DNA of 64,000 bases from NCBI GenBank assembly GCA_964362195.1, contig CAYICZ010000002.1, positions 63 to 64,062 on the forward strand, given 5' to 3'. This document shows, one piece after another, positions 13,761 through 27,945 of this stretch (the stretch's first letter is position 1; every line of letters begins with the position of its first letter). This DNA comes from an uncultured Gammaproteobacteria bacterium (GTDB taxonomy: Bacteria; Patescibacteriota; Microgenomatia; Daviesbacterales; UBA10151). A program made the translations under genes and the position numbers. The notes below the pieces were generated by a model, which saw only the letters and a program-made list of their open reading frames with translations, was not told the origin of the DNA and ran no database searches.

Positions 13761-14477
13761 GTGCACATGAGCGGACATAGTAAATGGTCAACTATCAAGC
13801 GGGCAAAAGGTGTGACAGATATTAAAAGGGGTCAAACTTTCACAAAACTTGCCAATGTTATTACTATTGCTGTGCGCCTGGGAGGCTCAGGTGACCCGGA
13901 TTCTAACCCAAGACTTCGGATGTCTATAGATGAAGCCCGTTCAGTTAATATGCCCAAAGAGAACATCCAGCGAGCCATAGATAGAGGTTTAGGAAAAGGA
14001 GAAGAAGCTAACTTGGAAGAGGTATTATATGAGGGATTTGGACCCTCTAAAGTAGCTGTAATTGTTGAAGGGTTGACTGATAATAAATCAAGGACCCTTC
14101 AGGAAGTAAAAAATATTTTTGAAAAAAGGGGTGGACATTTGGCAGGACAGGGTAGTGTGGCTTATATGTTTGAAAGAGTAGGGGAAATAAGGGTAAAGGG
14201 GAAAGGGGGAAGTGTAGAAGAAGAAACGTTGGAGTTAATAGACCTTGGTGCTAAAGATATACAAGGCTATTTAGTATATACAGAGAGCCCAGAATTAAAT
14301 ACTATGGGTAATAAAATTACTCAGGCTGGATATGGAGTAGAGAGCCAGGGTTTGATCTATAAACCAACTGTTTTTGTGGAAATTAATGATGAAGAAAGCG
14401 CAGACAAAGTTTTAGATTTTATTAAAAGACTAGAGGAGCTAGATGATATACAAAAAGTCTATACAAACTTACAATGA
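13761..14477 (+). CDS. yebC: YebC/PmpR-family transcriptional regulator
   Basis: MSGHSKWSTIKRAKG N-terminus is diagnostic. Confidence 0.9.
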   Translation: MHMSGHSKWSTIKRAKGVTDIKRGQTFTKLANVITIAVRLGGSGDPDSNPRLRMSIDEARSVNMPKENIQRAIDRGLGKGEEANLEEVLYEGFGPSKVAVIVEGLTDNKSRTLQEVKNIFEKRGGHLAGQGSVAYMFERVGEIRVKGKGGSVEEETLELIDLGAKDIQGYLVYTESPELNTMGNKITQAGYGVESQGLIYKPTVFVEINDEESADKVLDFIKRLEELDDIQKVYTNLQ

Positions 14478-15007
14478 TAATACTGGGAATTGATCCGGGA
14501 ACAGCTACAACAGGATATGGAGTAATAAAAATCCCTGATAATATTTTAAGCAGGGAATTTAAATATGATATTGAACTTATTACATATGGCAATATTCATA
14601 CTCCTAAAGAGAAGCTGATGCAGGATAGGCTGCATATGATTCATTTGGCGCTCACCAAAATAATAAAAGAATATAAGCCGGACCAGATGATTTCCGAGAT
14701 GCTGTTTTTCGGCGCTAATACCAGGACTGCCATTACCGTAGGGCAGGCAAGGGGAGTTATAATGTTAACCGCTGCCCAAAACAGGATTCCGTTTCAGGAT
14801 TACACCGGTCCGCAGATAAAATTAATGGTGGCAGGATCTGGCAGGGCAGATAAAAATCAGGTCCATGATGGGGTAAGAAAATTTTTAGGGAAGGTAGGCA
14901 GAAGAAGAAATAAACTAAAGGTAAGCTGGAAAGGCGGGCATCTGGATGATGCCACAGATGCGCTGGCCATAGCTATTTGTCATGTATTAAAGTTAGTAGC
15001 AAAATGA
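14474..15007 (+). CDS. ruvC: crossover junction endodeoxyribonuclease RuvC
   Basis: MIILGIDPGTATTGYGV RNase H-like start; yebC-ruvC synteny. Confidence 0.85.
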   Translation: MIILGIDPGTATTGYGVIKIPDNILSREFKYDIELITYGNIHTPKEKLMQDRLHMIHLALTKIIKEYKPDQMISEMLFFGANTRTAITVGQARGVIMLTAAQNRIPFQDYTGPQIKLMVAGSGRADKNQVHDGVRKFLGKVGRRRNKLKVSWKGGHLDDATDALAIAICHVLKLVAK

Positions 15008-15789
15008 AGTTTAATTTATTAAACAAACGTCAGAAAATCATAATAGCCTCAGTGTTATTAACTATAGGGTTACTTTCTACACAACTTGTGGACTTTAATT
15101 TAAGGTTTAAGTTTATAGCAGGCTTGTTTGTTCTATCATACATACTCTCCATTTGGGCTCTCTGGGAAGGACTAAATTTAACAAAAGCTATTGTTTTAAT
15201 AGTATTGCCGACTTTTTTTACAGTAGCTTTGGCAAGCTTTTATTTTCTGCTACCTGTTCGGTGGTTAACCAGATTGCCGGTTGCCGCTAGCTTTGGTTTA
15301 ATGTTCTACCTGCTGCTTTTGGCTCAAAACGTTTTCAATGTGGCATCACTCCGCACCATTCCCTTATACAGGGCAGCATCCACGGCCAGCTTTCTTTTTA
15401 CTCTTTTATCAGCATTCTTTCTATTTAATGTGATTTATGCTTTTAATTTATGGTTTTTTTGGAATGGGCTGGCTGTTTTTATTATTAGCTTTCCGCTTAT
15501 CTTGCAGGTTCTTTGGTCTATTCAAATGGAAGATCAGGTATCTAGCGCAATATTAGTCCAAAGCTTCATACTAAGTCTTATATTAGGGGAGTTAGCGTTG
15601 AGCTTTTCCTTTTGGCCAACACCTAATACTATCTGGCCGTTAATTCTTTCATCCTCAATGTATGTTTTGCTTGGACTTTCAACTCAAGTTTTAAAGGATA
15701 AAGTGAATAGGAGAGTAGTATGGGAATATTTAGGAATAGGGCTGGCAGTATTAATTCTTGGTTTTTTTACTACCTCCTGGACAGGATAA
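14977..15789 (+). CDS. hypothetical polytopic membrane protein
   Basis: 270 aa, about 8 TM helices. Confidence 0.45.
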   Translation: MSCIKVSSKMKFNLLNKRQKIIIASVLLTIGLLSTQLVDFNLRFKFIAGLFVLSYILSIWALWEGLNLTKAIVLIVLPTFFTVALASFYFLLPVRWLTRLPVAASFGLMFYLLLLAQNVFNVASLRTIPLYRAASTASFLFTLLSAFFLFNVIYAFNLWFFWNGLAVFIISFPLILQVLWSIQMEDQVSSAILVQSFILSLILGELALSFSFWPTPNTIWPLILSSSMYVLLGLSTQVLKDKVNRRVVWEYLGIGLAVLILGFFTTSWTG

Positions 15790-16481
15790 ATTAATTAGTT
15801 TAGATTGATTTGATAGTCCAAATGCAACAAGAAGTAGAGGAGCGTGAAAACTGTGAATAAATATCGTGAAAAGAAGAGATGATATGGTATGATGTAGTTG
15901 CCAGGCATGAATGTGGAAAACTATCGGTCTATGTATACAATTGCTAATAATAAAACCCGAACCCCTAGAGTAGAGATGTATCTATTTCTCTTGGAGGTTG
16001 CTCTAGACTATATGAAGTTCTGTGCTTTAAGTACACACTAGAAGTACATATTGATAATAAGCCTATTTCCTCTCTCTTTTCAGACTTCCCTGTATTTCGT
16101 TCGATGTCGCACAATATTAAGATTGAAGTAAACAGAGGAGAGGTATTCTTGGACTTTAAATATTTTTATTTATGTTAAAAGATAGGAAATTTGGAGAATA
16201 ATTTATTAGCTTTAAAAGTGGTAGTTCCCGTCCAAATTTTCCATAATCAAAAAAATTAAACTTTTAAATATATCAATAAAGCGTTTGGATTTTCCTGACA
16301 ATCTAATCTGGATGATGATAGATAGCCTTTATCCCCTGACAAGCCGTTTTTAGGGCCTTACAGGACCTCGTGCCTGAATAGGCTCAAGAAGGGAAATACC
16401 TTATAAGGATCTACCCGTTTAACGTGGTAACGTTACTTCACCACCAAAAATATTATAACTTTTCGTATTCATTTATGCACT

Positions 16482-16510
16482 TGACAGCCAGATTTAGGCA
16501 TGTTATTATT
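16482..16510 (+). promoter_or_regulatory. sigma70-like promoter candidate (TTGACA-17-TATTAT) for the recombinase gene
   Basis: TTGACA at 16482-16487, 17-nt spacer, TATTAT at 16505-16510. Confidence 0.35.
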
Positions 16511-16540
16511 CTTGTAATCAGCATTACACGAAGTTACAAT

Positions 16541-17542
16541 ATGCCCACTCCAACTAATCAAAATTTAAAAAATCAAACTCCACCCTCATCTTTAGATTTA
16601 ATAGATGACTTTTATTTATTTCTGCAAACCAACAACTATTCCCCTGCTACTATTTATCACTACAAAAATGATTTGGCAATTTTTGATAATTTTTTAAAAT
16701 CCAGAAATCTAAAAGTTAACGATTTAGATAAACGGTCTATATTTGAGTTTAAGGCTTATTTGTCATCAGATGACAGGCAAACAGCCACTACTCACCTTGA
16801 ATCTGCCCAAAGGTTATCCTCAGCAAGTATAAACAGGTGTCTTTCTGCAGTTAGGGCCTATATCCGATTTTTGATAGATCAGGATTATAAAACGCCGGTT
16901 TTTCCTGAGCAATTTAAGATGGTTAAAAGAGAACGTTCTCATCCGAACGTTGCAGAATTTAGTGAGTTAGTTTCCCTTATTGAATCCCCATCAACTATTG
17001 AACAGGATCCTGTAATTGCTGCGCGGAATAGAGCCATTCTGGAAGTTTTATTTGCAACAGGGATGCGTATCTCAGAACTTGTTTCCTTAAACAGAAGAGA
17101 TTTAAATGTTGAAGGAAAAATATTTATAACAGGAAAAGGACGGAAGCAAAGGTTTGTTTATCTGACAGAGCGTGCACAGTCCTATCTGGATCAATATTTG
17201 ACAATTAGGAAAGATAACCAGCAGGCCTTATTTGTTCCGACAAAAACAAGAAGTAAGGATAAACTTTCCTCAAGGTTAACCCCCAGATATGTTCAGGAGC
17301 GGCTTAAAACATACAGGGAAAAACTAAGAATAAACTTACCGACCACTCCGCATTCTTTCCGTCATGGTTTTGCAACATACTTAGCTGAAGAAGGAGCTTC
17401 CCCTGCTGCCATCCAGATATTACTTGGTCATGAGAGTTTGAATACCACCACCAGATACGTAAATGCATCGGATAAGTTTGCTCAGGAGTCACACCGCAAG
17501 TATCATCCTTTAGCTGAAAGGGCTTCAAGTGACGAGCGATGA
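16541..17542 (+). CDS. tyrosine site-specific recombinase (XerC/XerD-like integrase)
   Basis: C-terminal R..HSFRHGFAT...LLGH....TT.RY catalytic pentad pattern; start placed at the internal MPTPTNQ (16541), because the track N-terminus MVTLLHH... reads into the promoter. Confidence 0.8.
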   Translation: MPTPTNQNLKNQTPPSSLDLIDDFYLFLQTNNYSPATIYHYKNDLAIFDNFLKSRNLKVNDLDKRSIFEFKAYLSSDDRQTATTHLESAQRLSSASINRCLSAVRAYIRFLIDQDYKTPVFPEQFKMVKRERSHPNVAEFSELVSLIESPSTIEQDPVIAARNRAILEVLFATGMRISELVSLNRRDLNVEGKIFITGKGRKQRFVYLTERAQSYLDQYLTIRKDNQQALFVPTKTRSKDKLSSRLTPRYVQERLKTYREKLRINLPTTPHSFRHGFATYLAEEGASPAAIQILLGHESLNTTTRYVNASDKFAQESHRKYHPLAERASSDER

Positions 17543-18068
17543 TTTTGTAAAAATCTTCTACAGTAACTATACTCCAAGTATTGATTGGGCTAATATAGAT
17601 GAGATAACTTGGATGTATCAGGAAGAATTATTTACTATTTCTTCCAAGATTATTGCCTCTTCCGATGAATTTCTAAAAAAGTTAGATTTTGTTTTGGATT
17701 CCAAGAATGGATTAACAAGAAGCGGTGAAAGTGACGCACACCTGGCTTTAAAGTCCTTTGCTGCTGATTATTTAACTTCTAATTATGGTGTTTTGAAAGA
17801 AGAGGTGAAATTTGAATATCCCCTCATAGGATTTGAGGTTGATGTTATAGATAAGAATTTATTTTATCCTACGGAATGCGGAGATACAAATGCTTTAAAG
17901 CTTGAAAAATACCTTGTTCTGCCTGATACTAAAAAGATGTTAATTCTTCCCTATCCCCACTTTGGGAATGTAAAAGTATTTGAGTTTCAGGCTAATCCTA
18001 AATTTTTTAAATACATTAAACACAAACAAACTTTTCTAAATCAAAAAAACGCTAAATTCCGGAAGTAA
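17529..18068 (+). CDS. hypothetical protein
   Basis: 179 aa, overlaps the recombinase stop; no recognised domain. Confidence 0.4.
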   Translation: MTSDDFVKIFYSNYTPSIDWANIDEITWMYQEELFTISSKIIASSDEFLKKLDFVLDSKNGLTRSGESDAHLALKSFAADYLTSNYGVLKEEVKFEYPLIGFEVDVIDKNLFYPTECGDTNALKLEKYLVLPDTKKMLILPYPHFGNVKVFEFQANPKFFKYIKHKQTFLNQKNAKFRK

Positions 18069-18141
18069 AATCCGTTGTCGGACAATATTAATCCCTGCTG
18101 CTATTGACAAGCTCTTAGAATATGTGATTTAGTTAATTAAG

Positions 18142-20055
18142 ATGCCCAAATTTTTAAAATTACTCAGGCTTAATCAAAAAGGGGTTATCCACCTTATTCC
18201 CCTATTCCTTATATTAATAGGTATTATTGCTGGAGTATATTTAGTCCAGCATCCGCAGATCTTTAAGCCAAAGGCTGATGCACCGACTATTCAGTGGGTG
18301 CCGCGAAGCTCGGAAAATGATCCTGATAATTGTGTAACCGGAGTTGATCAAAATGGTTATGCCATAGCTGTCTGTTCAAAATTAAAGCTAAAATTTAACC
18401 TGCCGGCTCAATCTTCAGATGCAGGGTTCCAGTTTGTTAAAACAGCATATGCAAACCATCCTGCTGACACAGAAGACTTTTATTGTCAAAATAATCAGGT
18501 TTGGCACAGTGAGTACAGACCTGCCTGGGATTTGCTCGGTTGGTTCTCAGACCATAGTTTTAAAGAGGACTGTTCGAAAAGCAAGAAGATTTGTGTTACG
18601 TTGCCTGGTAGTGGAACGGGACAGGGAAAGCTTACCCAAAATGCGGCATGCGAAAATCAGCTTAGTATCGTATCATTTTCTACAGAGGACAGTGCAGGCC
18701 AGTCTAAGAAAGACTTTGTTACAGGAGATAAACCATTTACAGTAACTGCTTCAGCACTGGTTCGCAATAATAGCGGTGATTACGTTGAAGGAGATCAAAT
18801 ATGGCAGTGGTTTAATCCTTCAGGATCTTGGGTATCTGCAGAAACGGTTCATTTTATACTGCCGCCAGGTGTATCTGATGATATAGCCACTGCTATCTTA
18901 AGAGATAAAAATTCACCACCAGGTACCTATCGGGTAGATTTAAAAATTCTCGATATGAACGGGAACAAAATATCTGAAAGTTCCACTGCCTTTCAAGTAT
19001 CTTCTGTAGGAAAATTCCATTGTGGTTTTGCTTCAGATAAAGATAAAATCTACGATCAAAATTCTAAACTGATTAGCGATTGTGCAAGTACCAATCAGAT
19101 ATGCGTAGAGATTTCTGTTCCTGTCACCGTAGGTAGTGTAACAACAGCTAAATGCGCAGATAATCAGACAGTACCAACTCCAACTGGTGTTGGTACTACT
19201 GAACCAGCGGCTTCTCAAGTTACCCCTTCCCCAACTCCCGCTGCAGGCGGAATTAAGGTTGTTTGTGACGATAAAAAAGAGACTTATGGCCAGTGCGGCA
19301 ATACAGATGGATTAGAAGGTAAGGATCCTACCCATGAATTTGAAGTTACCAAAGTTACAGACTGTAATGGCAGGCCAAAGCCATACCTGATTAAAGATAA
19401 CGGCCCCTCTTCCAGATGTCCGCAAGATTCCGGCTCCCAAACAATAACCACCCCATCTACTGCCCCGACTGCTACAACAGCCCCTATCGCTTCCAGGAAA
19501 ATTGTAAAGTACAGGTATAAAGTAAGCTATCCTCCAATTAAAGAATCAGGCTGGATAAATATTACGGGTGGAGATATTGCAATAGATGCTGAAAATGCCA
19601 GCCCGGGAACACAAACAATTTACTTTGAATTTGCGGACAGCAATGGACAAATAGTAGAAATAGACGGTAAATCTACTGTGGCTGCATATGTAATATTTAT
19701 TGCACCGGGTACAACAACAACGCCAACTCCGACCATGACTCCGACTGCAGCTCCCCAGGCTACAGTTACACCAACTCCGGCAGGTACCGGCTGTACTGCT
19801 CCTCAGGCACCAACAGGCTTAGGTTATGATAAAAATAGTAGGACTGTTTTCTGGAATAAAGTTGAGGGAGCATCAGCATATAATGTTAGATTAGTGGATC
19901 CTGCTAAAGTTGAGCATGATCATGATGATATTAGTAACACCTGGTATACATTCCCTGCCAGTGAGGTTTCGGCTGTTGGAAGTTATTCAGGTTGGGTAGA
20001 TGCTTTTAACCAATGCGGAGTAGCAAGAGGTGGTTTCTCCTTTACCAACCTATGA
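18142..20055 (+). CDS. N-terminally anchored Cys-rich surface protein with Thr/Pro linkers and a C-terminal Fn3-like module (paralog 1)
   Basis: signal-anchor LILIGIIAGVYLVQHPQIFKPKA; many Cys; TPTPT linkers; C-terminal APTGLGYDKNSRTVFWNKVEGASAYNVRLVD resembles fibronectin type III. Confidence 0.55.
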   Translation: MPKFLKLLRLNQKGVIHLIPLFLILIGIIAGVYLVQHPQIFKPKADAPTIQWVPRSSENDPDNCVTGVDQNGYAIAVCSKLKLKFNLPAQSSDAGFQFVKTAYANHPADTEDFYCQNNQVWHSEYRPAWDLLGWFSDHSFKEDCSKSKKICVTLPGSGTGQGKLTQNAACENQLSIVSFSTEDSAGQSKKDFVTGDKPFTVTASALVRNNSGDYVEGDQIWQWFNPSGSWVSAETVHFILPPGVSDDIATAILRDKNSPPGTYRVDLKILDMNGNKISESSTAFQVSSVGKFHCGFASDKDKIYDQNSKLISDCASTNQICVEISVPVTVGSVTTAKCADNQTVPTPTGVGTTEPAASQVTPSPTPAAGGIKVVCDDKKETYGQCGNTDGLEGKDPTHEFEVTKVTDCNGRPKPYLIKDNGPSSRCPQDSGSQTITTPSTAPTATTAPIASRKIVKYRYKVSYPPIKESGWINITGGDIAIDAENASPGTQTIYFEFADSNGQIVEIDGKSTVAAYVIFIAPGTTTTPTPTMTPTAAPQATVTPTPAGTGCTAPQAPTGLGYDKNSRTVFWNKVEGASAYNVRLVDPAKVEHDHDDISNTWYTFPASEVSAVGSYSGWVDAFNQCGVARGGFSFTNL

Positions 20056-21455
20056 AGTTAGGCTTTATGTTAAACCAAAAAGGCCTTGCCCATATATTTT
20101 TACTTCTTATTTTAGGACTTGGAATTATTGCCGGGGTTTATTTAGTTTCTCATCCTACTATTTTTAAACCTAAAGCAGCTGGGGCAAATATTGAAATCGG
20201 AACTAATGAATGTGTAAGGCAAGTGGAAGGCAGAAAGACTTTAGTTTGCGGCGATGTTCCCTTAAAGCTTGTTTCTCCGCTAGAAACCGGCAATGCTGCC
20301 CCTGTTTCTGATGCAGGTTTTAGCCTGGTAAAAACAGTTTTAGCTCAAGAATCTAAAGGAGGGGTTGGATATTCTTGTGAGAAGGAAGGTGGAGATAAGT
20401 TAAAGATTTATCACCAGAAATGTAATTTTCAACTCCTTGGTATTAATTTTTGTGAGTTAAACTTCCCCTATACTAAATATGACTTAATACAAGAAAGTTG
20501 TGATATTGGACAAAGATGTGATTCAACTACTACAGATCTTTTTAATACCATAGCTAAATGCGTACCAGATGAGAATTCTCAACCCATCAGAAATCTCCAG
20601 CCTCCTATTTTTGTCCAGCCGCCCATCCCCACACCTACTTTTACTTCTATCCCCCGTGCTGTAGCTACTCCTACCCCAATTCCTACTGTAACAAATACTT
20701 CCCGTGCTACAGTTACTCCAACTTCAACTCCTATTCCGGCTGTAACCACTACAGCTACCCCAACAGCTACCCCACCTCCTACTCCTGATGCAATTGCTAG
20801 TGCTACACCAAGAGTTACAAAAGGTTACAGGATTGCGGAAGATCTGACTGCTTTAAAAACAGCCAAGTGGCATGATGATTATAAAGCTGGAGGAATAACT
20901 TATATTTATCCTCTTAGCAAAGATACAAAACCAGGTGGTACTGTTACATTGTTTGTGGAATTTAGGGATCAGGACGAGAAAACTATTAAATTCAGCAATG
21001 GGAATACGTATGCCAGCGTAAGTATTGATTTTTCCGCTCCCGAAGTATCTCCTTCCCCAACTGCTGCCCGTGTTATTGCAGCAACAACATGTAAGGTTGC
21101 TGAAAATGCCAATAGAAAGTGTACTCTTCCAACTGAAAAATGTGAGATTACAACTTTGGCTGATATAGGTAATTGTACAAATGAACAGTTATTGGGAACG
21201 TTAACCAAGGAGCAGCTTGGAACAATTGATCTCGCAAGAATGAAGACATTTGGAAGCGATGATCTGATGTGTTTTTTCCCTAGAGAAGTAGTAGCCAGAA
21301 TGGATGCAGGAACGTTAAAAGACTTACCTAATGAAGATTTGCTTCTATTGGGTGATGCTTCAGGCGACTGTAAAACATTTCTTTCCAGTTTTAGTTGCGA
21401 CAGAATAGTTTTGCTCCCTTCAGAATATCAGGCTCTCACCAGTTGTGGCCGTTAG
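20052..21455 (+). CDS. N-terminally anchored Cys-rich surface protein (paralog 2)
   Basis: same N-terminal block LLILGLGIIAGVYLVSHPTIFKPKA and SDAGFSLVKT motif as paralog 1; start moved to the ATG at 20052 (ATGA overlap with the upstream stop). Confidence 0.55.
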   Translation: MKLGFMLNQKGLAHIFLLLILGLGIIAGVYLVSHPTIFKPKAAGANIEIGTNECVRQVEGRKTLVCGDVPLKLVSPLETGNAAPVSDAGFSLVKTVLAQESKGGVGYSCEKEGGDKLKIYHQKCNFQLLGINFCELNFPYTKYDLIQESCDIGQRCDSTTTDLFNTIAKCVPDENSQPIRNLQPPIFVQPPIPTPTFTSIPRAVATPTPIPTVTNTSRATVTPTSTPIPAVTTTATPTATPPPTPDAIASATPRVTKGYRIAEDLTALKTAKWHDDYKAGGITYIYPLSKDTKPGGTVTLFVEFRDQDEKTIKFSNGNTYASVSIDFSAPEVSPSPTAARVIAATTCKVAENANRKCTLPTEKCEITTLADIGNCTNEQLLGTLTKEQLGTIDLARMKTFGSDDLMCFFPREVVARMDAGTLKDLPNEDLLLLGDASGDCKTFLSSFSCDRIVLLPSEYQALTSCGR

Positions 21456-21506
21456 CTTGACAAAACCATTCAAAAAGTGACAAAGTGAATACAGGACTTA
21501 ATTTAC

Positions 21507-23495
21507 ATGTCAGATTATCTAAAGGAAATCTTATCCAGGAAGAATTTAATCAATATTTTAATTCTGGCTATTTTAATTTTAGCAGTTCCCTTAACCATAA
21601 ATTTAGTCAGACAGCAGCAGATTTTAAAATCCAAAGCAGCCACAGATACAGTGCAATTGGTAGACAATTCTTGTACCAGCGTCCAAAATAATAAAAAAGT
21701 CTTAACCTGTCCAACAGTCACCTTAAACTTTGTTGCCCCAACTGAGGTGGATGTAATTACTGAACAAAGATTAGTTAATACTGCTTATGCTGCACAAGGT
21801 GATTGTATTTATTCTGAGGTGGATATAAACGGTACTAAATGCTACACCGGAGTTTGTTCTGTTCCAAATTGCAGTTTTAACAATAATTGTGTATATCAAT
21901 ATGGAATATCTGAACTAACAACATGTCCTGGTCAAGCTGCGCCAACCAGTTGTTCTTCTGATCTGGAGTATTGCGATACAGACCTAAATAGAATTGTCCA
22001 TAAAACAGGAGGGGTTTATGATCCGGAGCGAGCGATAAAAGCAGATGGGTCAAGAACAGATGATTATCCATGTGTTTATGCCTATGTGGACACAGGACGC
22101 GCTTGTCCAGGTGGAGGATCAGCAACTCCAACTTCAACTTCAACTCCAACACCAACACCTGCTCCTGCTGCTGCTTCAACAGCTGCACCTTGTCCAAAAA
22201 ATCCTGGAGACTCCGGGACGAAAACGACTTGTGGAACAACAACATACGACAGCTGTGTAGATGATCAAGGTGTGCCGGATACCAATACCCAATTTTGTAA
22301 AAATGCTAGTTCTAAGTTTAAATGTTCATACTCCAAAAATTCAGCCTGTACTAGTGAATTTGTTTATTCCTGTTCATCTTGTGCTACTGCTTCCCCATCC
22401 CCTTCTGCCTCTCCTTCTACAGTTCAAAATGTTGTCAAAGTAAGATACGCGGAAAACTCAGCTGATTTAACTAACCCTAATGCCAGACGTGAATTTGCAT
22501 ATTTTAAGGGTGGAGTTAGACAGGATATTACTTTTGTTGATCAAACCCCTGGTACTAAATTCATTTATGCCCAGTTTATAGATGATAAAGGTCAGACTCA
22601 AAATGGTAATCCTTTTCCATTCAAGATAGATCTGGTTGGTCCAACCCCACTGGTGTCAGGTTTTGCCTGTGAGCTGGATTTGGTTAATTCTTCTGATTTA
22701 TTGTTTAAGTTTATAGGGTCTAATTTTGGTCAAACTCAAGGTAATGGAAGTATAACCCTTAGAAGTGGCGGCAGCATAAGTAGATACGACAGCTGGACAG
22801 ACAGCGTAGTTACTGCCCGTTTAAGCAGTCCCCCGGTTTCTGCAATTGCTTTAGGAACTCAATATTTTGCAACTTTGACAAATAGTAATGGACAAAAATC
22901 CCAGGAACAGCAATGTTTGGTGGGAATTACCCAAATCTCCCTTGGGGCAAAGCTTTTCTGTAGGGCTCAGAGGGATTTTGACCAGGACAATGTTGAGCTG
23001 ATTTTAATTTTAGATAAAGACCGTTCTCAAAAATCAACTGAAAAAGTAACTATAGATAAAGATGGCAATATTACCAATATTAAAACCAAACTTAAATCAG
23101 GTGAAAACTATATTGCCTGTATCAAAGCTCCCTTAAGTTTAAAAAGATGCTCTGCTCCATTCACAGCTTCTTCCGGAACTAACAATTTAACAATAAATCT
23201 TCCTATTGGAGATTATAATGGGGATGGTAGTATAAATAGTGTGGATGCATCTTTACTTAAAAGTCAGTGGGGGCCTATGAATTCCTCTAAAAACTGTGAT
23301 GTAAACCGGGATCGATTCTGTAATTCATTTGAATGGTCTTGTATGCTGCATGATTTTAATACATCTGATCAACAAACGCTGCCTAATTCTATTGCCCCAG
23401 TTTCAACTCCTACACCGACTCCTACACCAACTCCAACACCAACTCCAACACCACCACCGTCACCTACGCCAACACCTGATACATCAGGAATTTAA
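21507..23495 (+). CDS. N-terminally anchored Cys-rich surface protein with C-terminal dockerin-like module (paralog 3)
   Basis: N-terminal anchor plus ILKSKAATDT; C-terminal DYNGDGSINSVDASLLKSQWG...NCDVNRDRFCN matches dockerin Ca-binding repeats (D.NGDG.INS.D...LK); (TP)n tail. Confidence 0.55.
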   Translation: MSDYLKEILSRKNLINILILAILILAVPLTINLVRQQQILKSKAATDTVQLVDNSCTSVQNNKKVLTCPTVTLNFVAPTEVDVITEQRLVNTAYAAQGDCIYSEVDINGTKCYTGVCSVPNCSFNNNCVYQYGISELTTCPGQAAPTSCSSDLEYCDTDLNRIVHKTGGVYDPERAIKADGSRTDDYPCVYAYVDTGRACPGGGSATPTSTSTPTPTPAPAAASTAAPCPKNPGDSGTKTTCGTTTYDSCVDDQGVPDTNTQFCKNASSKFKCSYSKNSACTSEFVYSCSSCATASPSPSASPSTVQNVVKVRYAENSADLTNPNARREFAYFKGGVRQDITFVDQTPGTKFIYAQFIDDKGQTQNGNPFPFKIDLVGPTPLVSGFACELDLVNSSDLLFKFIGSNFGQTQGNGSITLRSGGSISRYDSWTDSVVTARLSSPPVSAIALGTQYFATLTNSNGQKSQEQQCLVGITQISLGAKLFCRAQRDFDQDNVELILILDKDRSQKSTEKVTIDKDGNITNIKTKLKSGENYIACIKAPLSLKRCSAPFTASSGTNNLTINLPIGDYNGDGSINSVDASLLKSQWGPMNSSKNCDVNRDRFCNSFEWSCMLHDFNTSDQQTLPNSIAPVSTPTPTPTPTPTPTPTPPPSPTPTPDTSGI

Positions 23496-23513
23496 ATGTG
23501 ATAATCTAAAAAT

Positions 23514-24137
23514 ATGGACAATCAAATATTTAATTATCAAAATTCGGATTTTCAAAAACCTCCCAAAGCTGGTTTGCCCATACTGAGGATTATTTTTTTT
23601 ATCTTTGCTGCAGTAATTGCCTTTGAGCTTTTAATGGGCGCCAAAACCTTGCTTACTCCTATCAAAGTGATCCAAAAAACTCCGTCTACGGTTGTTTTAT
23701 CAGAGGGGGTTATTAATCTAAGCACTCTTCAGTCTTCATATGGTGTTTCAGAGACAGTTCCTGTTGCTGTTAAAGTTTCAACCGGTAATCACCTAACCTC
23801 AGGTGTTGATTTGGTTTTAAAATATGATCCTGTTATACTGGAGGCATCCAGTGCAGCTTTGATTAAAGGATCGGCCTTTGATGAGTATCCGGATGTAAAT
23901 ATAGATTCTAAAAATGGCATATTAAGAGCTTCAGGAGTGGTTTCTCCTGCAAAGCTAGGATTTAACGGCAATAATGGAGATTTTGGAGTGATTAATTTCA
24001 CTGCAATATCCAAAGGAATGACCACTATTTCCCTGGAATTTTCTCCAAATGCAACTGATGATTCAAACATGGTGGAGCTGGAAACCAATAAAGATGTATT
24101 AGGAAAAGTCAGTAGTGTTAAAATAAATATACAATGA
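23514..24137 (+). CDS. membrane-anchored cohesin-domain protein
   Basis: N-terminal TM; VPVAVKVSTGNHLTSGVDLVLKYDPVILEA...GVINFTAISKGMTTISLEF matches the cohesin consensus (v.v......l.g.dl.l.YDp.vLe ... i.F.a...G.t.l.f). Confidence 0.5.
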   Translation: MDNQIFNYQNSDFQKPPKAGLPILRIIFFIFAAVIAFELLMGAKTLLTPIKVIQKTPSTVVLSEGVINLSTLQSSYGVSETVPVAVKVSTGNHLTSGVDLVLKYDPVILEASSAALIKGSAFDEYPDVNIDSKNGILRASGVVSPAKLGFNGNNGDFGVINFTAISKGMTTISLEFSPNATDDSNMVELETNKDVLGKVSSVKINIQ

Positions 24138-24859
24138 AAAAATTACTGTCTATAATGTCTGTATTACTGTTTGGATTTTTAACAGCCGCTCCTGCTTATG
24201 CCTCTACTTTATCCCTCTCCCCTGCATCCGGCACCTTTAATAAAGGCTGCAACTTTGTTTTGGATGTTTTACTTGATACCCAAGGAGCATCAACAGACGG
24301 GACTGATGCTTATATTAATTTTGATTCCTCCCGTTTTACTATGGTTAGTATAAATACAACAGGAAAAATATACCCTGAATATCCTGGCAGCGGAATAGAT
24401 TCTCAAAATGTTAACAAAATTTTAATCTCAGGTTTGGCAACCTTTGGACAACCATATTCAGGTTCAGGAAAGCTGGCTACTATTAATTTTACAGTGAAAG
24501 AAGCAGCCCAAACAGGACTGTCTCAGATGACTTTTGATTTTGATACAAACAATAAAAACTCAACTATTGATTCAAATGTGGTTAAATCAGGTGATTCTAC
24601 AGAAACGCTGACATCTGTAAATAATGGAAGCTATACTATAGGTACAGGGAGTTGTACCAGTCCTTCCCCTACTCCTGCAGGAAGAGTTAATATAGGAGGG
24701 CCTAATATTTCCACCCCTTCTGCAACACAAATTCCTTTGAAACAAATACCTACCAAAGAAAGTTTGCCTGATGCCGGGACACCTGAGTTTACAGCCGCAA
24801 TTGCTATTGTTGGTTCTATTTTAACTGTCCTGGGGATTTTAGGACTGGCTTTGTTATGA
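24134..24859 (+). CDS. secreted cohesin-like protein with C-terminal LPDAGTPEF + TM anchor
   Basis: signal peptide ending AYAST; cohesin-like block NFVLDVLLDTQGASTDGTDAYINFDSSRFTMVSI...GKLATINFTVKEAAQTGLSQMTFDF; C-terminus LPDAGTPEFTAAIAIVGSILTVLGILGLALL. Confidence 0.5.
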   Translation: MKKLLSIMSVLLFGFLTAAPAYASTLSLSPASGTFNKGCNFVLDVLLDTQGASTDGTDAYINFDSSRFTMVSINTTGKIYPEYPGSGIDSQNVNKILISGLATFGQPYSGSGKLATINFTVKEAAQTGLSQMTFDFDTNNKNSTIDSNVVKSGDSTETLTSVNNGSYTIGTGSCTSPSPTPAGRVNIGGPNISTPSATQIPLKQIPTKESLPDAGTPEFTAAIAIVGSILTVLGILGLALL

Positions 24860-25779
24860 CACTTGCTGCGCTGATAACTGATTTTTTAGAGTATCTGGAA
24901 CTGGAGAGGAATACCTCACAGCTGACTATTAAAAATTATGATCATTATCTAAAGCGGTTTCTGGATTTTGCAGGTGATATCAATCCAAAAGATATAGATT
25001 TAAATCTTGTTAGAAAATATAGACTGCACCTTTCAAGATGGGCAGATCCCCAGACACAAAAATCCTTAAAAAGAATTACCCAGAATTATTTTATGATAGC
25101 TTTGCGGGCATTTTTAAGATATTTGGCCAGAATAGATATTGATACTCTCTCCCCTGAGAAAGTTGAGCTTGGTGAAACAGATCCAAGACCCTTAAAGATC
25201 CTGGATGATAGCCATTTAAAACAGCTTTTAGAGGCCCCTGATACCACTAAAAAAGATGGAATCAGGGATAGAAGTATCCTGGAAACCTTATTTTCAACCG
25301 GCCTGCGTGTATCTGAGCTTGCCTCACTGAATTGTGACACCATTAATTTAGGAAGGCGTGAATTTGGGATTGTTGGCAAAGGAGGAAAAGAGCGGGTAGT
25401 ATTTATCTCTGACTCGGCAGCTGAGTGGCTCCAGAAATATCTGGATATCCGGAAAGACAGCTTTAAACCGCTTTTTATCAGATTTCAGGGAAGGATGGAT
25501 CCTGCAAATAATGGTGAGGCAATGAGGCTTACACCACGATCAATTGAAAGAATAGTAGAAAAATATGTTAAATCTTTAGGCTTTTCTGTAAAAGCTACCC
25601 CGCATACATTACGTCACTCTTTTGCTACAGATTTATTAATTAATGGAGCAGATATCCGCTCTGTGCAGGAAATGCTTGGACACTCCTCTATTCAAACAAC
25701 CCAAATTTACACCCATGTGACAAATGCACATTTAAAAGACGTTCACAAAGCCTTTCACTCTAGTAATTCCAAAGAATAG
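24856..25779 (+). CDS. tyrosine recombinase XerC/XerD family
   Basis: N-terminal LITDFLEYLELERNTSQLTIKNY core-binding pattern; C-terminal HTLRHSFATDLLINGADIRSVQEMLGHSSIQTTQIYTHV with the catalytic Tyr. Confidence 0.85.
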   Translation: MTLAALITDFLEYLELERNTSQLTIKNYDHYLKRFLDFAGDINPKDIDLNLVRKYRLHLSRWADPQTQKSLKRITQNYFMIALRAFLRYLARIDIDTLSPEKVELGETDPRPLKILDDSHLKQLLEAPDTTKKDGIRDRSILETLFSTGLRVSELASLNCDTINLGRREFGIVGKGGKERVVFISDSAAEWLQKYLDIRKDSFKPLFIRFQGRMDPANNGEAMRLTPRSIERIVEKYVKSLGFSVKATPHTLRHSFATDLLINGADIRSVQEMLGHSSIQTTQIYTHVTNAHLKDVHKAFHSSNSKE

Positions 25780-25782
25780 CTT

Positions 25783-26142
25783 TTATTTTTTCGCTATATC
25801 TTTGAGCAAGCTTGATAGTACTGTTCCAACAACAGATAAAACTATTGCTCCAAGTATTGCCGGTACCCAGCCATCAATCTTTAAGCCTGGCACCACGTAT
25901 GAGACTATAAATAAGATCAGCGCATTGACTACAAATGAGAATAAACCCAGTGTAATTAATGTTATAGGTAGTGTAATAAGTGCCAGTACTGGTTTAATAA
26001 AAGTATTAACTGCTCCTAAAACAATTGCAGCCAACAGGGCTGTTGTAAAATCAGTAACTCTAAATCCAGGGACAATATAGGCAGTTGCCATTAAAGCCAG
26101 GGCATTTAAAACTAAAGCTACAATAATTTGCAAATTAATCAC
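25783..26142 (-). CDS. phage-holin-family-4 / DUF360-like 4-TM membrane protein
   Basis: 119 aa, 4 TM, pattern AYIVPGF.V..F..A...A.VLG..N...KP.L resembles the YvlD / holin superfamily IV family. Confidence 0.5.
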   Translation of the reverse strand: MINLQIIVALVLNALALMATAYIVPGFRVTDFTTALLAAIVLGAVNTFIKPVLALITLPITLITLGLFSFVVNALILFIVSYVVPGLKIDGWVPAILGAIVLSVVGTVLSSLLKDIAKK

Positions 26143-26194
26143 CTCCTTTAATCTATTATTTGATCAAATTGTAGTTTATGTCAACTTTTTTCAA

Positions 26195-26224
26195 TTGACA
26201 AATTTTGCCTCACTTGTGTAGTAT
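26195..26224 (+). promoter_or_regulatory. promoter candidate (TTGACA-18-TAGTAT) with overlapping tgtcaa/ttgaca inverted repeat, upstream of the amidase gene
   Basis: direct reading of the divergent intergenic region 26143-26246. Confidence 0.3.
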
Positions 26225-26246
26225 TAACTTCTCCTGCCCAAAATAA

Positions 26247-27020
26247 ATGGCCACAAATCTTTCAATCCCATCTTTAGGAGCTAAATTTGTGGATTTAAGA
26301 GATTCTCTTCCCGGAGACTCTTATAATTGGAGTTGGATTAGACAGCTGTCTCAGGTAAATTATCTGGCAATACATCACAGCGCCGGTTCGGATACTCAAA
26401 CCCCGGAAGAAATCGCAGATTATCATATAACTGATCATGGCTGGGGCGGGATTGGGTATCATTTTTTAATTGCTAAAGATGGAGTAGTTTATTATGTAGG
26501 TGACATAGGAACAGCCAGGGCTAATGTTGTTAATTTAAACGAACAGGTAATAGGTATTTGTTTGATAGGGAATTTTACCTCCGGCAGAACTCCTACGGAG
26601 GAGCAAATTGATTCTACTCATAAACTTTGTGAGGCCTTAATCAACTATCCTGAGCTGTCAAATGTTAATTCCTGGGAAGCGCTAAAGTCTCATAAAAGTC
26701 TGCCTGGTCAAGCAACTGTTTGCCCTGGAGATGATGATTCCTGGATGAATAAAATTATTTCCCCCAGAGAAATTATATTTAACCAACCCTTAACTCAAAG
26801 TCAGGAAGTATTAAATTTAAGGTTGCAGGTTGATTCTTTGCAAACTACGCTGGCAACAGTTAATCAGCAGCTTATTTTTTTGCAGGAAGCTTTAGCTGAA
26901 AAAGATCAGAAAAATAGTAATCCTACCCAAACTTTAAAACCTCTCTACCTCGCATTAGCCACCGCCATATTTATAGATTTTATGCTGTCAGGCTTTATAA
27001 TTTTGCTAGGATCTAAATAA
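26247..27020 (+). CDS. N-acetylmuramoyl-L-alanine amidase (Amidase_2/PGRP domain) with C-terminal coiled region and TM anchor
   Basis: HHSAGSD...GWGGIGYHFLI...VIGICLIGNF...ATVCPGD zinc-ligand pattern of Amidase_2. Confidence 0.75.
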   Translation: MATNLSIPSLGAKFVDLRDSLPGDSYNWSWIRQLSQVNYLAIHHSAGSDTQTPEEIADYHITDHGWGGIGYHFLIAKDGVVYYVGDIGTARANVVNLNEQVIGICLIGNFTSGRTPTEEQIDSTHKLCEALINYPELSNVNSWEALKSHKSLPGQATVCPGDDDSWMNKIISPREIIFNQPLTQSQEVLNLRLQVDSLQTTLATVNQQLIFLQEALAEKDQKNSNPTQTLKPLYLALATAIFIDFMLSGFIILLGSK

Positions 27021-27026
27021 TTACAC

Positions 27027-27737
27027 TTACACCTCGAAGGTGTAAAGCTAAATCTCATCCACAAGATGATGTTTTATAAATTCTAACGCTTTGCCATAAT
27101 CAATCTGATCTTCCACAAATTCCGTGTATTTTTCTCTGGAAGGGAATAAATTTAGAATCTCAAGGGGATTACAGAATAGACTATGAGTTTGGGTGTATTC
27201 TAAATATGAAGACCAGGGATAGTATTCTGGTTTCTTGGTCAAATCAGAAACAACCGGATTTAGGTGGATATATCTGGAAACATGAATTAATTGTTCTTGT
27301 GACTCAATCAGGACTGCCTTAAAAGCTCCTTGAAGTAAGGGCCCTACCCTTTTGTATTTAATATTAAAATATTTTGTATAACTGTTAGAAAGTTGGCTCA
27401 TGAAAATTGATATTCCATTGTCTTTCAACTGCTTAACTAAGAAATGGAAGTGATTTGGCATTAAACAATAACAAAGTACCTCTACTATTTTGTTATTGAA
27501 CGAAGTTTTAAAAAGATCTGTCTTTGTAAAATTTGCAAATCTTGGTTTAGGTCCAGGGAATTGGTAATAATATGAGGTTTTCAAAAACCTCATATAATCT
27601 CTGGATTGTTGATAGATGCTTCTTTTCTCGCTGCCCCTGTTATAAATATGATAAAACTCGTTGTTTACTAAGGGTGTAATTCTTCCGGGCATATAAATTA
27701 GTTTACGATTACACCTTCGAGGTGTCAAGCTACATTT
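27027..27737 (-). mobile_element. RayT/IS200-like HUH tyrosine transposase unit flanked by cognate hairpin repeats
   Basis: hairpins ttacacctcgaaggtgtaaagctaaat (27027-27054) and ttacaccttcgaggtgtcaagctacat (27707-27737) bracket the transposase ORF in the same orientation. Confidence 0.6.
27048..27692 (-). CDS. REP-associated tyrosine transposase (Y1 HUH, IS200/IS605 TnpA-like)
   Basis: HUH motif CLMPNHFHFLV and C-terminal SRYIHLNPVVSDL...YPWSSY; start moved to the internal MPGRITPL (27692), because the track N-terminal 23 aa are a translated hairpin repeat. Confidence 0.7.
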   Translation of the reverse strand: MPGRITPLVNNEFYHIYNRGSEKRSIYQQSRDYMRFLKTSYYYQFPGPKPRFANFTKTDLFKTSFNNKIVEVLCYCLMPNHFHFLVKQLKDNGISIFMSQLSNSYTKYFNIKYKRVGPLLQGAFKAVLIESQEQLIHVSRYIHLNPVVSDLTKKPEYYPWSSYLEYTQTHSLFCNPLEILNLFPSREKYTEFVEDQIDYGKALEFIKHHLVDEI

Positions 27738-27945
27738 ATATAGGTTTGCCGGCCAGGCCAAAGATTAGCAGATCGTTAACAAAACCGGTTGCCTGAAATG
27801 GCCAGGTAATAATTACTGAGTAAAATCCCGGAGATAAAAAAGAAATAACAGGCCATTTATAATATATAGCAAAGACTATGGTAAAGACAAATCCTACCAT
27901 AAAATAACTAATAGCAATTGTAGAAAGTATGGCAGACTTTTTCAT
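27736..27945 (-). CDS. small hydrophobic protein (2 TM), hypothetical
   Basis: 69 aa, 4-bp overlap with the gyrA stop; could be spurious. Confidence 0.3.

Follow-up and report, generated by a model that had tools for sequence, protein, structure and literature searches.

A conserved dockerin and cohesin gene block, probably a cell-surface display module, in Candidatus Daviesbacteria

Bacteria of the candidate phyla radiation (CPR), or Patescibacteria, are believed to lead a life of attachment to other cells, and to our knowledge no attachment machinery is known outside Saccharibacteria. Here we analyse a 64,000-nucleotide stretch of contig CAYICZ010000002.1 (hereafter the window) from the lineage Candidatus Daviesbacteria (Hainich groundwater), with a focus on three adjacent genes at 21507-24859 that encode a large secreted protein with a dockerin module (S3) and two membrane proteins with one cohesin each (C1 and C2). 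Two tyrosine recombinase genes, Xer1 upstream and Xer2 downstream, bracket these and further surface-protein genes. An earlier note on this DNA, made from the letters alone, had read the locus as a cohesin-dockerin anchoring system within a possibly mobile, recombinase-bracketed island, and all open reading frames (ORFs) that it named exist where it had placed them. Judged from sequence comparison and structure prediction, 21507-24859 is probably a lineage-wide, vertically inherited cell-surface display module, in which secreted S3 would most likely be tethered to the membrane cohesin C1.

Results

All features described between 15841 and 25779 lie on the + strand. By Pfam and orthologue alignment, S3 (21507-23495) is a predicted secreted multidomain protein that runs from a signal sequence through Cys-rich regions, an IPT-like module and a conserved pre-dockerin module to the dockerin and a Thr-Pro (TP) tail. 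The dockerin (residues 568-608, 23208-23330) matches Dockerin_1 (PF00404) at 33.5 bits, with a cut-off of 22.9, and holds two duplicated F-hand calcium loops, DYNGDGSINSVD and DVNRDRFCNSFE, which follow the rule of acidic or amide residues at positions 1, 3, 5, 9 and 12. The earlier note had S3 end in a dockerin; the module is there, but it is followed by a tail of about 55 amino acids. A motif scan of all ORFs of at least 100 amino acids in the 64 kb found no dockerin-type loop outside S3.

C2 (24134-24859) combines a signal peptide, a cohesin, a Pro/Thr/Ser linker and a C-terminal transmembrane helix, as assigned by Pfam and AlphaFold2, and matches Cohesin (PF00963) at 28.3 bits (cut-off 24.1). 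C1 (23514-24137), assigned by profile-profile comparison and predicted fold, is an N-terminally membrane-anchored protein that has no Pfam match of its own; PF00963 is found in 16 of the 21 listed C1 homologues. The C1 and C2 families match each other in hhalign (probability 99.4%, E 5e-22), and the C1 family profile matches the Protein Data Bank (PDB) cohesins 3l8q and 5g5d. The AlphaFold2 models (predicted local distance difference test scores of 77.9 for C1 and 80.7 for C2) returned only cohesins among their top 50 PDB matches in Foldseek, in which C1 lies nearest to type II cohesins (best 1qzn, E 7.9e-9; also 3ghp, 3l8q, 4u3s and 5k39) and C2 nearest to type I cohesins (best 6kgf_C, E 1.9e-10, template modelling (TM) score 0.79). 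Profile searches and structure prediction, both proposed in the earlier note, thus bear out its assignment of cohesins to 23514-24137 and 24134-24859. Some Daviesbacteria homologues are already labelled "cohesin domain-containing protein" by NCBI.

The predicted topology also agrees with the anchors proposed earlier, N-terminal in C1 (helix 23-46) and C-terminal in C2 (helix 217-240, besides a helix at 2-16). Each protein has a single cohesin, which sits about 15-20 residues from the membrane in C1 and on a linker of about 45 residues in C2, and the signal peptide and C-terminal helix of C2 are kept in 36 homologues. Comparison of motif, helix and basic tail among the homologues gave no LPXTG-type sortase signal in C2: its tail reads LP(D/E/P)(G/A)G(T/S) and continues into a helix ending in LALL, position 4 is never Thr, a basic tail is missing, and several homologues have GKGPGT in place of the LP motif. 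The gene call of the source starts C2 7 codons later.

For comparison with relatives, an Xer2-based genome scan gave 80 loci, of which the closest belong to Candidatus Daviesbacteria and one comes from a complete chromosome of 820,589 bp. Synteny was assessed by tblastn of 21 window proteins against the 80 loci, which were divided by Xer2 identity to the window into bands of at least 72% (n = 44, corresponding to 44 Daviesbacteria species genomes), 56-72% (n = 11) and below 56% (n = 25); linkage counts refer to loci with enough upstream sequence to judge. Nine further metagenomic contigs were checked for gene order and orientation. A protein identical to C1 is present on Hainich groundwater contigs (well H43, 0.1-µm fraction).

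The gene order common to the Daviesbacteria loci is YebC-RuvC-DUF5656, a non-coding gap, variable large secreted proteins, a dockerin protein, C1, C2, Xer2, usually a holin-like gene, and GyrA on the other strand, and the same order and orientation recur on the nine contigs. At an Xer2 identity of at least 72%, C2 stands beside Xer2 in 37/40 loci, C1 and C2 occur together in 32/37, the full set of dockerin gene, C1 and C2 is present in 28/35, and GyrA lies downstream in 35 of 44. The respective counts are 1/11, 1/11, 1/11 and 7/11 in the 56-72% band, and 0/23, 0/22, 0/19 and 0/25 below 56%. Three loci of the middle band (L050-L052) still have RuvC-DUF5656 upstream of Xer2, with GyrA downstream in L050 and L052; the L051 sequence ends before the GyrA position. 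The yebC-ruvC-DUF5656 ... xer neighbourhood (13761-15789 together with 24856-25779 in the window) is kept without cohesins in distant relatives with an Xer2 identity of 57-60%. This neighbourhood predates the cohesin block, which suggests insertion of the surface genes into a cluster of recombination genes.

Within the conserved order, the gene directly upstream of C1 keeps its end and little else. We aligned the last 250 residues of this gene product from 32 genomes, and Pfam found Dockerin_1 in 30/32 of the genes (E ≤ 0.01). Across the alignments the dockerin keeps its two F-hand loops along with the internal symmetry (I/V)NS.D, and a conserved module, LGAK.FCR ... KAP.S.RR ... F.A..GTT, precedes both loops. 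The remainder of these proteins is highly variable, with lengths of 563-1728 amino acids and divergent sequence. Several genes of the block carry dockerin loops in L006, L018 and L023.

The dockerin also diverges in step with one of the two cohesins. In a mirror-tree test on 31 loci, with partial Mantel statistics that control for Xer2 distances, the dockerin correlated with the C1 cohesin at r 0.44 (partial Mantel 0.44, p about 0.0005), as opposed to r 0.12 for C2 (partial Mantel 0.11, p 0.19) and r 0.05 for Xer2. C1 and the dockerin evolve fastest, with mean distances of 0.62 and 0.55, compared with 0.40 for C2 and 0.22 for Xer2. Because dockerin divergence follows C1 and not C2, C1 is the likeliest cognate socket.

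Several observations weigh against a pairing of S3 with C1 as the means of display. C1 falls below the Pfam threshold and the fit of its model to type II cohesins is moderate (TM about 0.6). The mirror-tree signal can stem from shared rate variation or from linked transfer of neighbouring genes. C2 is independent of S3, given that it persists in L014 and L022, where both C1 and a dockerin gene are missing. Finally, cleavage of the S3 signal sequence is deduced from a motif, and if the segment were to stay as an uncleaved anchor, the dockerin would not be needed for retention.

A rival explanation, which we regard as unlikely, is that the modules are neighbours rather than partners: the S3 dockerin alone would be a calcium-binding, ligand- or glycan-binding module, C1 and C2 would be cohesin-fold membrane proteins that bind another ligand, and adjacency would reflect a shared envelope function. 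Non-cellulosomal dockerins without known cohesins have been read as adhesins in other ultra-small bacteria (PMC10066038, PMC10633639), and both the persistence of C2 beside no dockerin gene and the missing co-divergence of dockerin and C2 fit such an explanation. It would, however, leave unexplained why about 30 species keep a dockerin gene immediately before C1 despite the strong divergence of the rest of the protein, why dockerin and C1 co-diverge beyond phylogeny, and why both loops and their symmetry are retained. Profile and fold matches, conserved adjacency and dockerin-C1 co-divergence together favour the self-contained cohesin-dockerin pairing, free of glycoside hydrolases, that the earlier note had predicted.

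The two genes upstream of S3 encode S1 (18142-20055), a secreted Cys-rich surface protein without a dockerin, and its paralogue S2 (20013-21455), as seen by sequence comparison; identity to S1 is 31% for S2 and 21% for S3. The true start of S2 is probably a later ATG, and the source's gene call has S2 at 467 amino acids. With 16, 16 and 28 cysteines in S1, S2 and S3, a Thr+Pro content of 17-19% and TP-rich linkers encoded by TP-repeat DNA, the three proteins are as Cys-rich and TP-linked as previously described. The motifs given for all three earlier hold in part: a hydrophobic N-terminus and a basic K-x-K-A are common to them, but S3 has ILKSKA instead of KPKA and lacks SDAGF.

In full, the common N-terminus consists of a hydrophobic segment, a Q-rich stretch and K-(P/S)-K-A. 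A hydrophobic helix with Q-rich (I/L)x(K/R)(S/P)(K/R)A|A (the bar marks the putative cut) occurs in 30/84 ORFs of at least 300 amino acids between DUF5656 and Xer2 in related loci, and within the window the S-K-A|A signature is found only in S1-S3 (18142-18290, 20013-20200 and 21507-21650). As S-K-A|A after a hydrophobic segment fits the -3/-1 rule for signal peptidase I, the signature probably represents a signal peptide of unusual length that includes a cleavage site for this enzyme. The signal-anchor of the earlier note is thus right as to the hydrophobic N-terminus and doubtful as to anchoring, given that the motif looks cleavable.

S1 orthologues are present in only a few loci. Upstream of S3, where the window has S1 and S2, there is a rapidly evolving set of genes for secreted Cys-rich proteins that vary in number and kind by species. 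Domains of a catalytic or carbohydrate-binding type were absent from S1-S3 and from the C-terminal regions of the 32 orthologues in Pfam searches, which gave TIG and Ig-like domains only. This bears on another alternative, a minimal cellulosome-like degradative complex in which C1 and C2 anchor dockerin-tagged hydrolases or peptidases encoded elsewhere and S3 is one client. Two cohesins for one dockerin in the window, several dockerin-loop genes in the block of the three loci named above and the cellulosome-like systems proposed in other uncultured phyla (PMC8542988) would suit it. The missing enzyme and carbohydrate-binding domains do not, and nor does the single cohesin per protein, which leaves no scaffoldin; we hold this alternative to be distinctly improbable. 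The features that define a cellulosome were looked for at the locus, and S1-S3 and the 32 orthologue C-termini gave neither a multi-cohesin scaffoldin nor a dockerin-bearing glycoside hydrolase nor a carbohydrate-binding module (CBM). Since the displayed proteins lack enzyme domains, adhesion or an envelope layer is a likelier role for them than polymer degradation.

The display module would then work as follows. S3 would be exported by Sec and its long signal sequence probably cut at S-K-A|A, and the freed protein would be retained on the cell through its C-terminal dockerin. The conserved module in front of the dockerin appears to be Ig-like, as in cellulosomal X-dockerin dyads. By analogy with the two domain families, the dockerin would plug in a calcium-dependent manner into a single-cohesin membrane protein, and co-divergence points to C1, predicted to be a type II membrane protein that exposes its cohesin on the outside, as the most likely partner. 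C2, as a second and more conserved cohesin on a C-terminal helix, may hold other dockerin proteins or another ligand. Neither Xer1 nor Xer2 belongs to the display machine.

As the earlier note had recognized, two XerC/D-type recombinases bracket the surface genes. Both Xer1 (16541-17542) and Xer2 (24856-25779, its start overlapping the C2 stop) match Phage_integrase in Pfam (7.9e-35 and 6.8e-44), have SAM-like N-domains and keep the complete catalytic set R-K-HxxR-H-Y; they are 34% identical to each other. The best NCBIfam models are XerC and XerD, with both proteins under the equivalog cut-offs (XerC model: 206 for Xer1 and 240.8 for Xer2, cut-off 335), and Xer2 barely passes the archaeal XerA model (220.5, with 220 required). 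At 75-91% identity across Daviesbacteria and 50-55% in Saccharibacteria and Parcubacteria, Xer2 is, to go by sequence conservation, the conserved chromosomal Xer and a core gene of these bacteria. Downstream of Xer2 (25783-27761) lie a holin-like Phage_holin_4_2 gene (- strand), an Amidase_2 peptidoglycan amidase gene and an IS200-like Y1 transposase gene (- strand); the positions of the amidase and transposase genes differ among relatives.

Between Xer1 and Xer2 there are six genes and not five, as had been counted, the one overlooked being ORF179 (17529-18068), which encodes a Daviesbacteria-specific orphan protein. The two genes overlap at the Xer1 stop and the ORF179 start and are translationally coupled. 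The family comprises about 112 homologue clusters of about 178 amino acids without a known domain, all Daviesbacteria-named except one labelled Nitrospirae and one unclassified. Searches of Pfam, NCBIfam, PHROG, PADLOC and PDB gave no match to ORF179, even with a 24-sequence profile. The invariant residues E96, D105, D108, E116-C-G and K124 loosely recall a PD-(D/E)xK nuclease.

Xer1 is present in 6/44 Daviesbacteria loci and in L049, in each case with the non-coding element before it and the surface genes after it, and its chromosomal place is identical in every contig that holds it. Xer1 and ORF179 are an extra module fixed in part of Daviesbacteria. L001 is the closest relative, with an Xer2 identity of 91%, and there unrelated genes fill the slot that separates element and surface genes (600-2950 of that locus): a 269-amino-acid ORF, possibly a methyltransferase as judged by eye only, a 252-amino-acid protein and a remnant of ORF179, which persists there without Xer1. 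The 269-amino-acid ORF and the 252-amino-acid protein are each preceded by their own TGTCGNACAAT motif (described below). This slot is a hotspot of gene turnover.

The Xer1 gene has a sigma-70-like promoter, TTGACA-N17-TATTAT (16481-16509; 11/12 positions plus TG), which is conserved in Xer1 loci and is the best + strand sigma-70 match in 15700-26300. It runs into a palindromic core-type site, TATTCTTGTAA-TCAGCA-TTACACGAAGT (16505-16532), with arms of about 11 bp and a spacer of 6 bp, that ends 8 nt before the Xer1 ATG at 16541. The site is conserved in Xer1 loci, being identical in L009, L013, L019 and L023, and a variant with symmetric changes in both arms, GAGTATAA-TCAACC-TTATACTC, occurs in L020 and L024, a related clade. 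The window and each locus contain one copy of the site, which lies in the same context on all seven metagenome contigs that carry it; neither the window nor the loci yielded a partner site for inversion or excision. The layout is known from xerS/difSL and xerH/difH, in which an Xer-type gene likewise has a single palindromic core-type site directly upstream. In the former, difSL lies immediately upstream of xerS (PMC1914069). In contrast to xerS/difSL, the putative Xer1 site overlaps the 5' untranslated region and the genome also retains Xer2, and on this analogy the site may be a recombination site but could equally be an autoregulatory operator.

The earlier note had taken a 630-bp leader upstream of Xer1 as a sign of mobility. 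The non-coding gap measures 751 nt (15790-16540), and a portion of about 550 nt (15841-16395), which follows the DUF5656 gene, is made up of blocks conserved in no fewer than 20 distinct sequences from Daviesbacteria, irrespective of the presence of Xer1. Rfam gave no match in the window, and sensitive scans of the element from the window, L019 and L014 returned chance matches only. RNase P RNA, tmRNA, signal recognition particle (SRP) RNA and group II intron were dropped by eye, as their signature motifs are absent. RNAalifold on an alignment of the element (A6) gave a structure in which 84.9% of cells are paired, as against about 43% with partners slid, and 18 pairs changed on both sides, as against 12.9 in shuffles (7/500 shuffles reach 18); this covariation is only suggestive because the structure was derived from the same alignment. 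The helices with the best support are a long-range one that joins 15902-15910 to 16368-16376, which contains G-U pairs and has compensatory changes in L014, L013 and L010, and a hairpin at 16285-16306. With moderate covariation support, the element may be a new large structured RNA and/or a regulatory region.

Inside the element lies the motif TGTCGNACAAT (in the window, TGTCGCACAAT at 16105-16115). In Xer1-less relatives, in 18/18 loci in which this part is seen, it forms the left arm of a full palindrome, GATGTCGGACAA-TGTATC-TTATGCGACGTC (also written TGTCGGACAA-TGTATC-TTATGCGACGTC), with conserved arms and a variable centre. This dif-like palindrome resembles Escherichia coli dif, GGTGCGCATAA-TGTATA-TTATGTTAAAT (PMC3025954). 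All Xer1-bearing sequences, including the window, have kept the left arm only and lost the right. The motif recurs 9-16 nt before the -35 box of the first surface gene; in the window, the second copy, TGTCGGACAAT (18076-18086), lies 18 nt before the TTGACA box and 55 nt before the S1 start. It is also found directly upstream of Xer2 (L008, L010, L014, L031, L033, L053, L055, L058, L061 and L074) wherever Xer2 has its own spacer, including in distant CPR lineages. The window contains two exact copies in 64 kb, too few for a general promoter motif, and a cassette boundary in the style of integrons or pdif modules was also dropped, given that there is one motif per transcription unit and not one between all genes. 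Candidates for its function are an operator, an Xer half-site or an unusual -10 element.

The element further holds DnaA-box-like TGTGGAAAA and TGTGGATAA motifs, which raised the idea of a replication origin; against it, genes traverse the region one way and the window copy is degenerate. GC skew, which flips sign with the coding strand several times over 1-64000, tracks gene strand and thus cannot place an origin or terminus here, and it was dropped as a terminus marker.

We can now weigh the mobility claimed earlier, in which the flanking Xer recombinases would excise, invert or shuffle the block by acting on sites within the leader and at the opposite end. Two intact tyrosine recombinases flanking the genes, species-specific gene content between element and S3 (unrelated genes in L001) and a slightly raised G+C (0.40-0.42, versus 0.35-0.38) might all be expected of an island, as might the 19-nt direct repeat CG(A/T)TGTCG(C/G)ACAATATTAA at 16102 and 18073. 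On the other side, most genomes lack Xer1 and yet are just as variable, the repeated motif marks starts of transcription units, precedes Xer2 in distant CPR as well and does not separate single genes in multi-gene slots (L006, L018), and the raised G+C would fit the Thr/Pro-rich linkers. A search for flanking repeats over 15000-27000 gave only short chance-level matches and TP-linker repeats, with no direct or inverted repeat bracketing 16541-25779 beyond chance and no att-type repeats around the block; the single-copy Xer1 site adds to this. The window has no tRNA gene, and viral contigs yielded no protein closely related to Xer1 or ORF179.

Synteny speaks against mobility as well. In assembled sequence, the 44 species genomes and nine metagenome contigs show one position and a single orientation of the block, with no inverted repeats of an invertible switch, and S3-C1-C2-Xer2 lie at the same place in nearly all Daviesbacteria; the only varying parts are Xer1-ORF179 and the upstream S genes. 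The earlier note had itself named constancy of position and orientation in relatives as evidence against mobility, and the order is kept in essentially all related genomes. Fixed synteny, missing bracketing repeats and the core status of Xer2 make a mobile or phase-variable island highly improbable. We read the block as an operon that stays in place and is inherited vertically, rather than as an island able to move or switch.

Discussion

Functionally, the proposed display module comes nearest to the way in which type II cohesins and X-dockerins anchor cellulosomes (Clostridium thermocellum CipA X-Doc with SdbA, OlpB or Orf2p; Acetivibrio cellulolyticus ScaA-ScaB); there, an Ig-like module plus dockerin on a cell-bound cohesin likewise fixes a large secreted protein. 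The Daviesbacteria locus differs in having no multi-cohesin scaffoldin, enzymes or CBM, in carrying single cohesins on transmembrane helices instead of SLH domains or sortase anchors, and in coming from a member of the CPR whose genome measures about 0.8 Mb.

Cohesins and dockerins outside cellulosomes have been described before (Peer et al. 2009, as cited in PMC8542988 and PMC10066038). As in Daviesbacteria, these are single modules in organisms that do not degrade cellulose, and the Archaeoglobus fulgidus cohesin 2xdh and the Clostridium perfringens cohesins 2jh2 and 2vo8 are among the Foldseek matches of the C1 and C2 models. What sets the Daviesbacteria pair apart is a conserved three-gene operon across a class-level lineage, membrane-anchored cohesins and a dockerin that co-diverges with one cohesin. 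Within Patescibacteria, SEML1_0315 of the cultivated Southlakia epibionticum (Saccharibacteria) is an essential dockerin-domain envelope protein thought to act in host contact (PMC10633639). Like S3, it is a dockerin-bearing surface protein, a likeness drawn from its description; it comes from a different CPR class, with no cohesin partner reported. Our search of a literature library found no paper describing a cohesin-dockerin pair in CPR or Daviesbacteria. New here are the lineage-wide three-gene module, the transmembrane-anchored single cohesins and the statistical pointer to a cognate pair.

A more far-reaching picture is quite unlikely in its entirety: a plug-and-socket attachment apparatus in which fast-evolving secreted adhesins are swapped over evolutionary time on a conserved X-dockerin/C1 coupling, with the block wired to a hitherto undescribed structured RNA of about 550 nt and to an Xer-associated TGTCGNACAAT (a CPR dif site or Xer operator) and with the surface genes inserted beside an ancestral ruvC-DUF5656-dif-xer cluster.

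For the reading of microbial genomes, the locus gives a useful negative result, in that flanking by two recombinase genes does not turn this gene block into an island. With the module, cohesin-dockerin biology would come to include single cohesins anchored by transmembrane helices, in a bacterium whose genome is about 0.8 Mb. The conserved operon offers a testable coupling of the S3 dockerin to the C1 cohesin, whose small, expressible ectodomains make the interaction measurable. The same coupling could be used to fish for the ligand of the displayed protein or for the host, and it thereby provides a concrete handle on attachment in Daviesbacteria.

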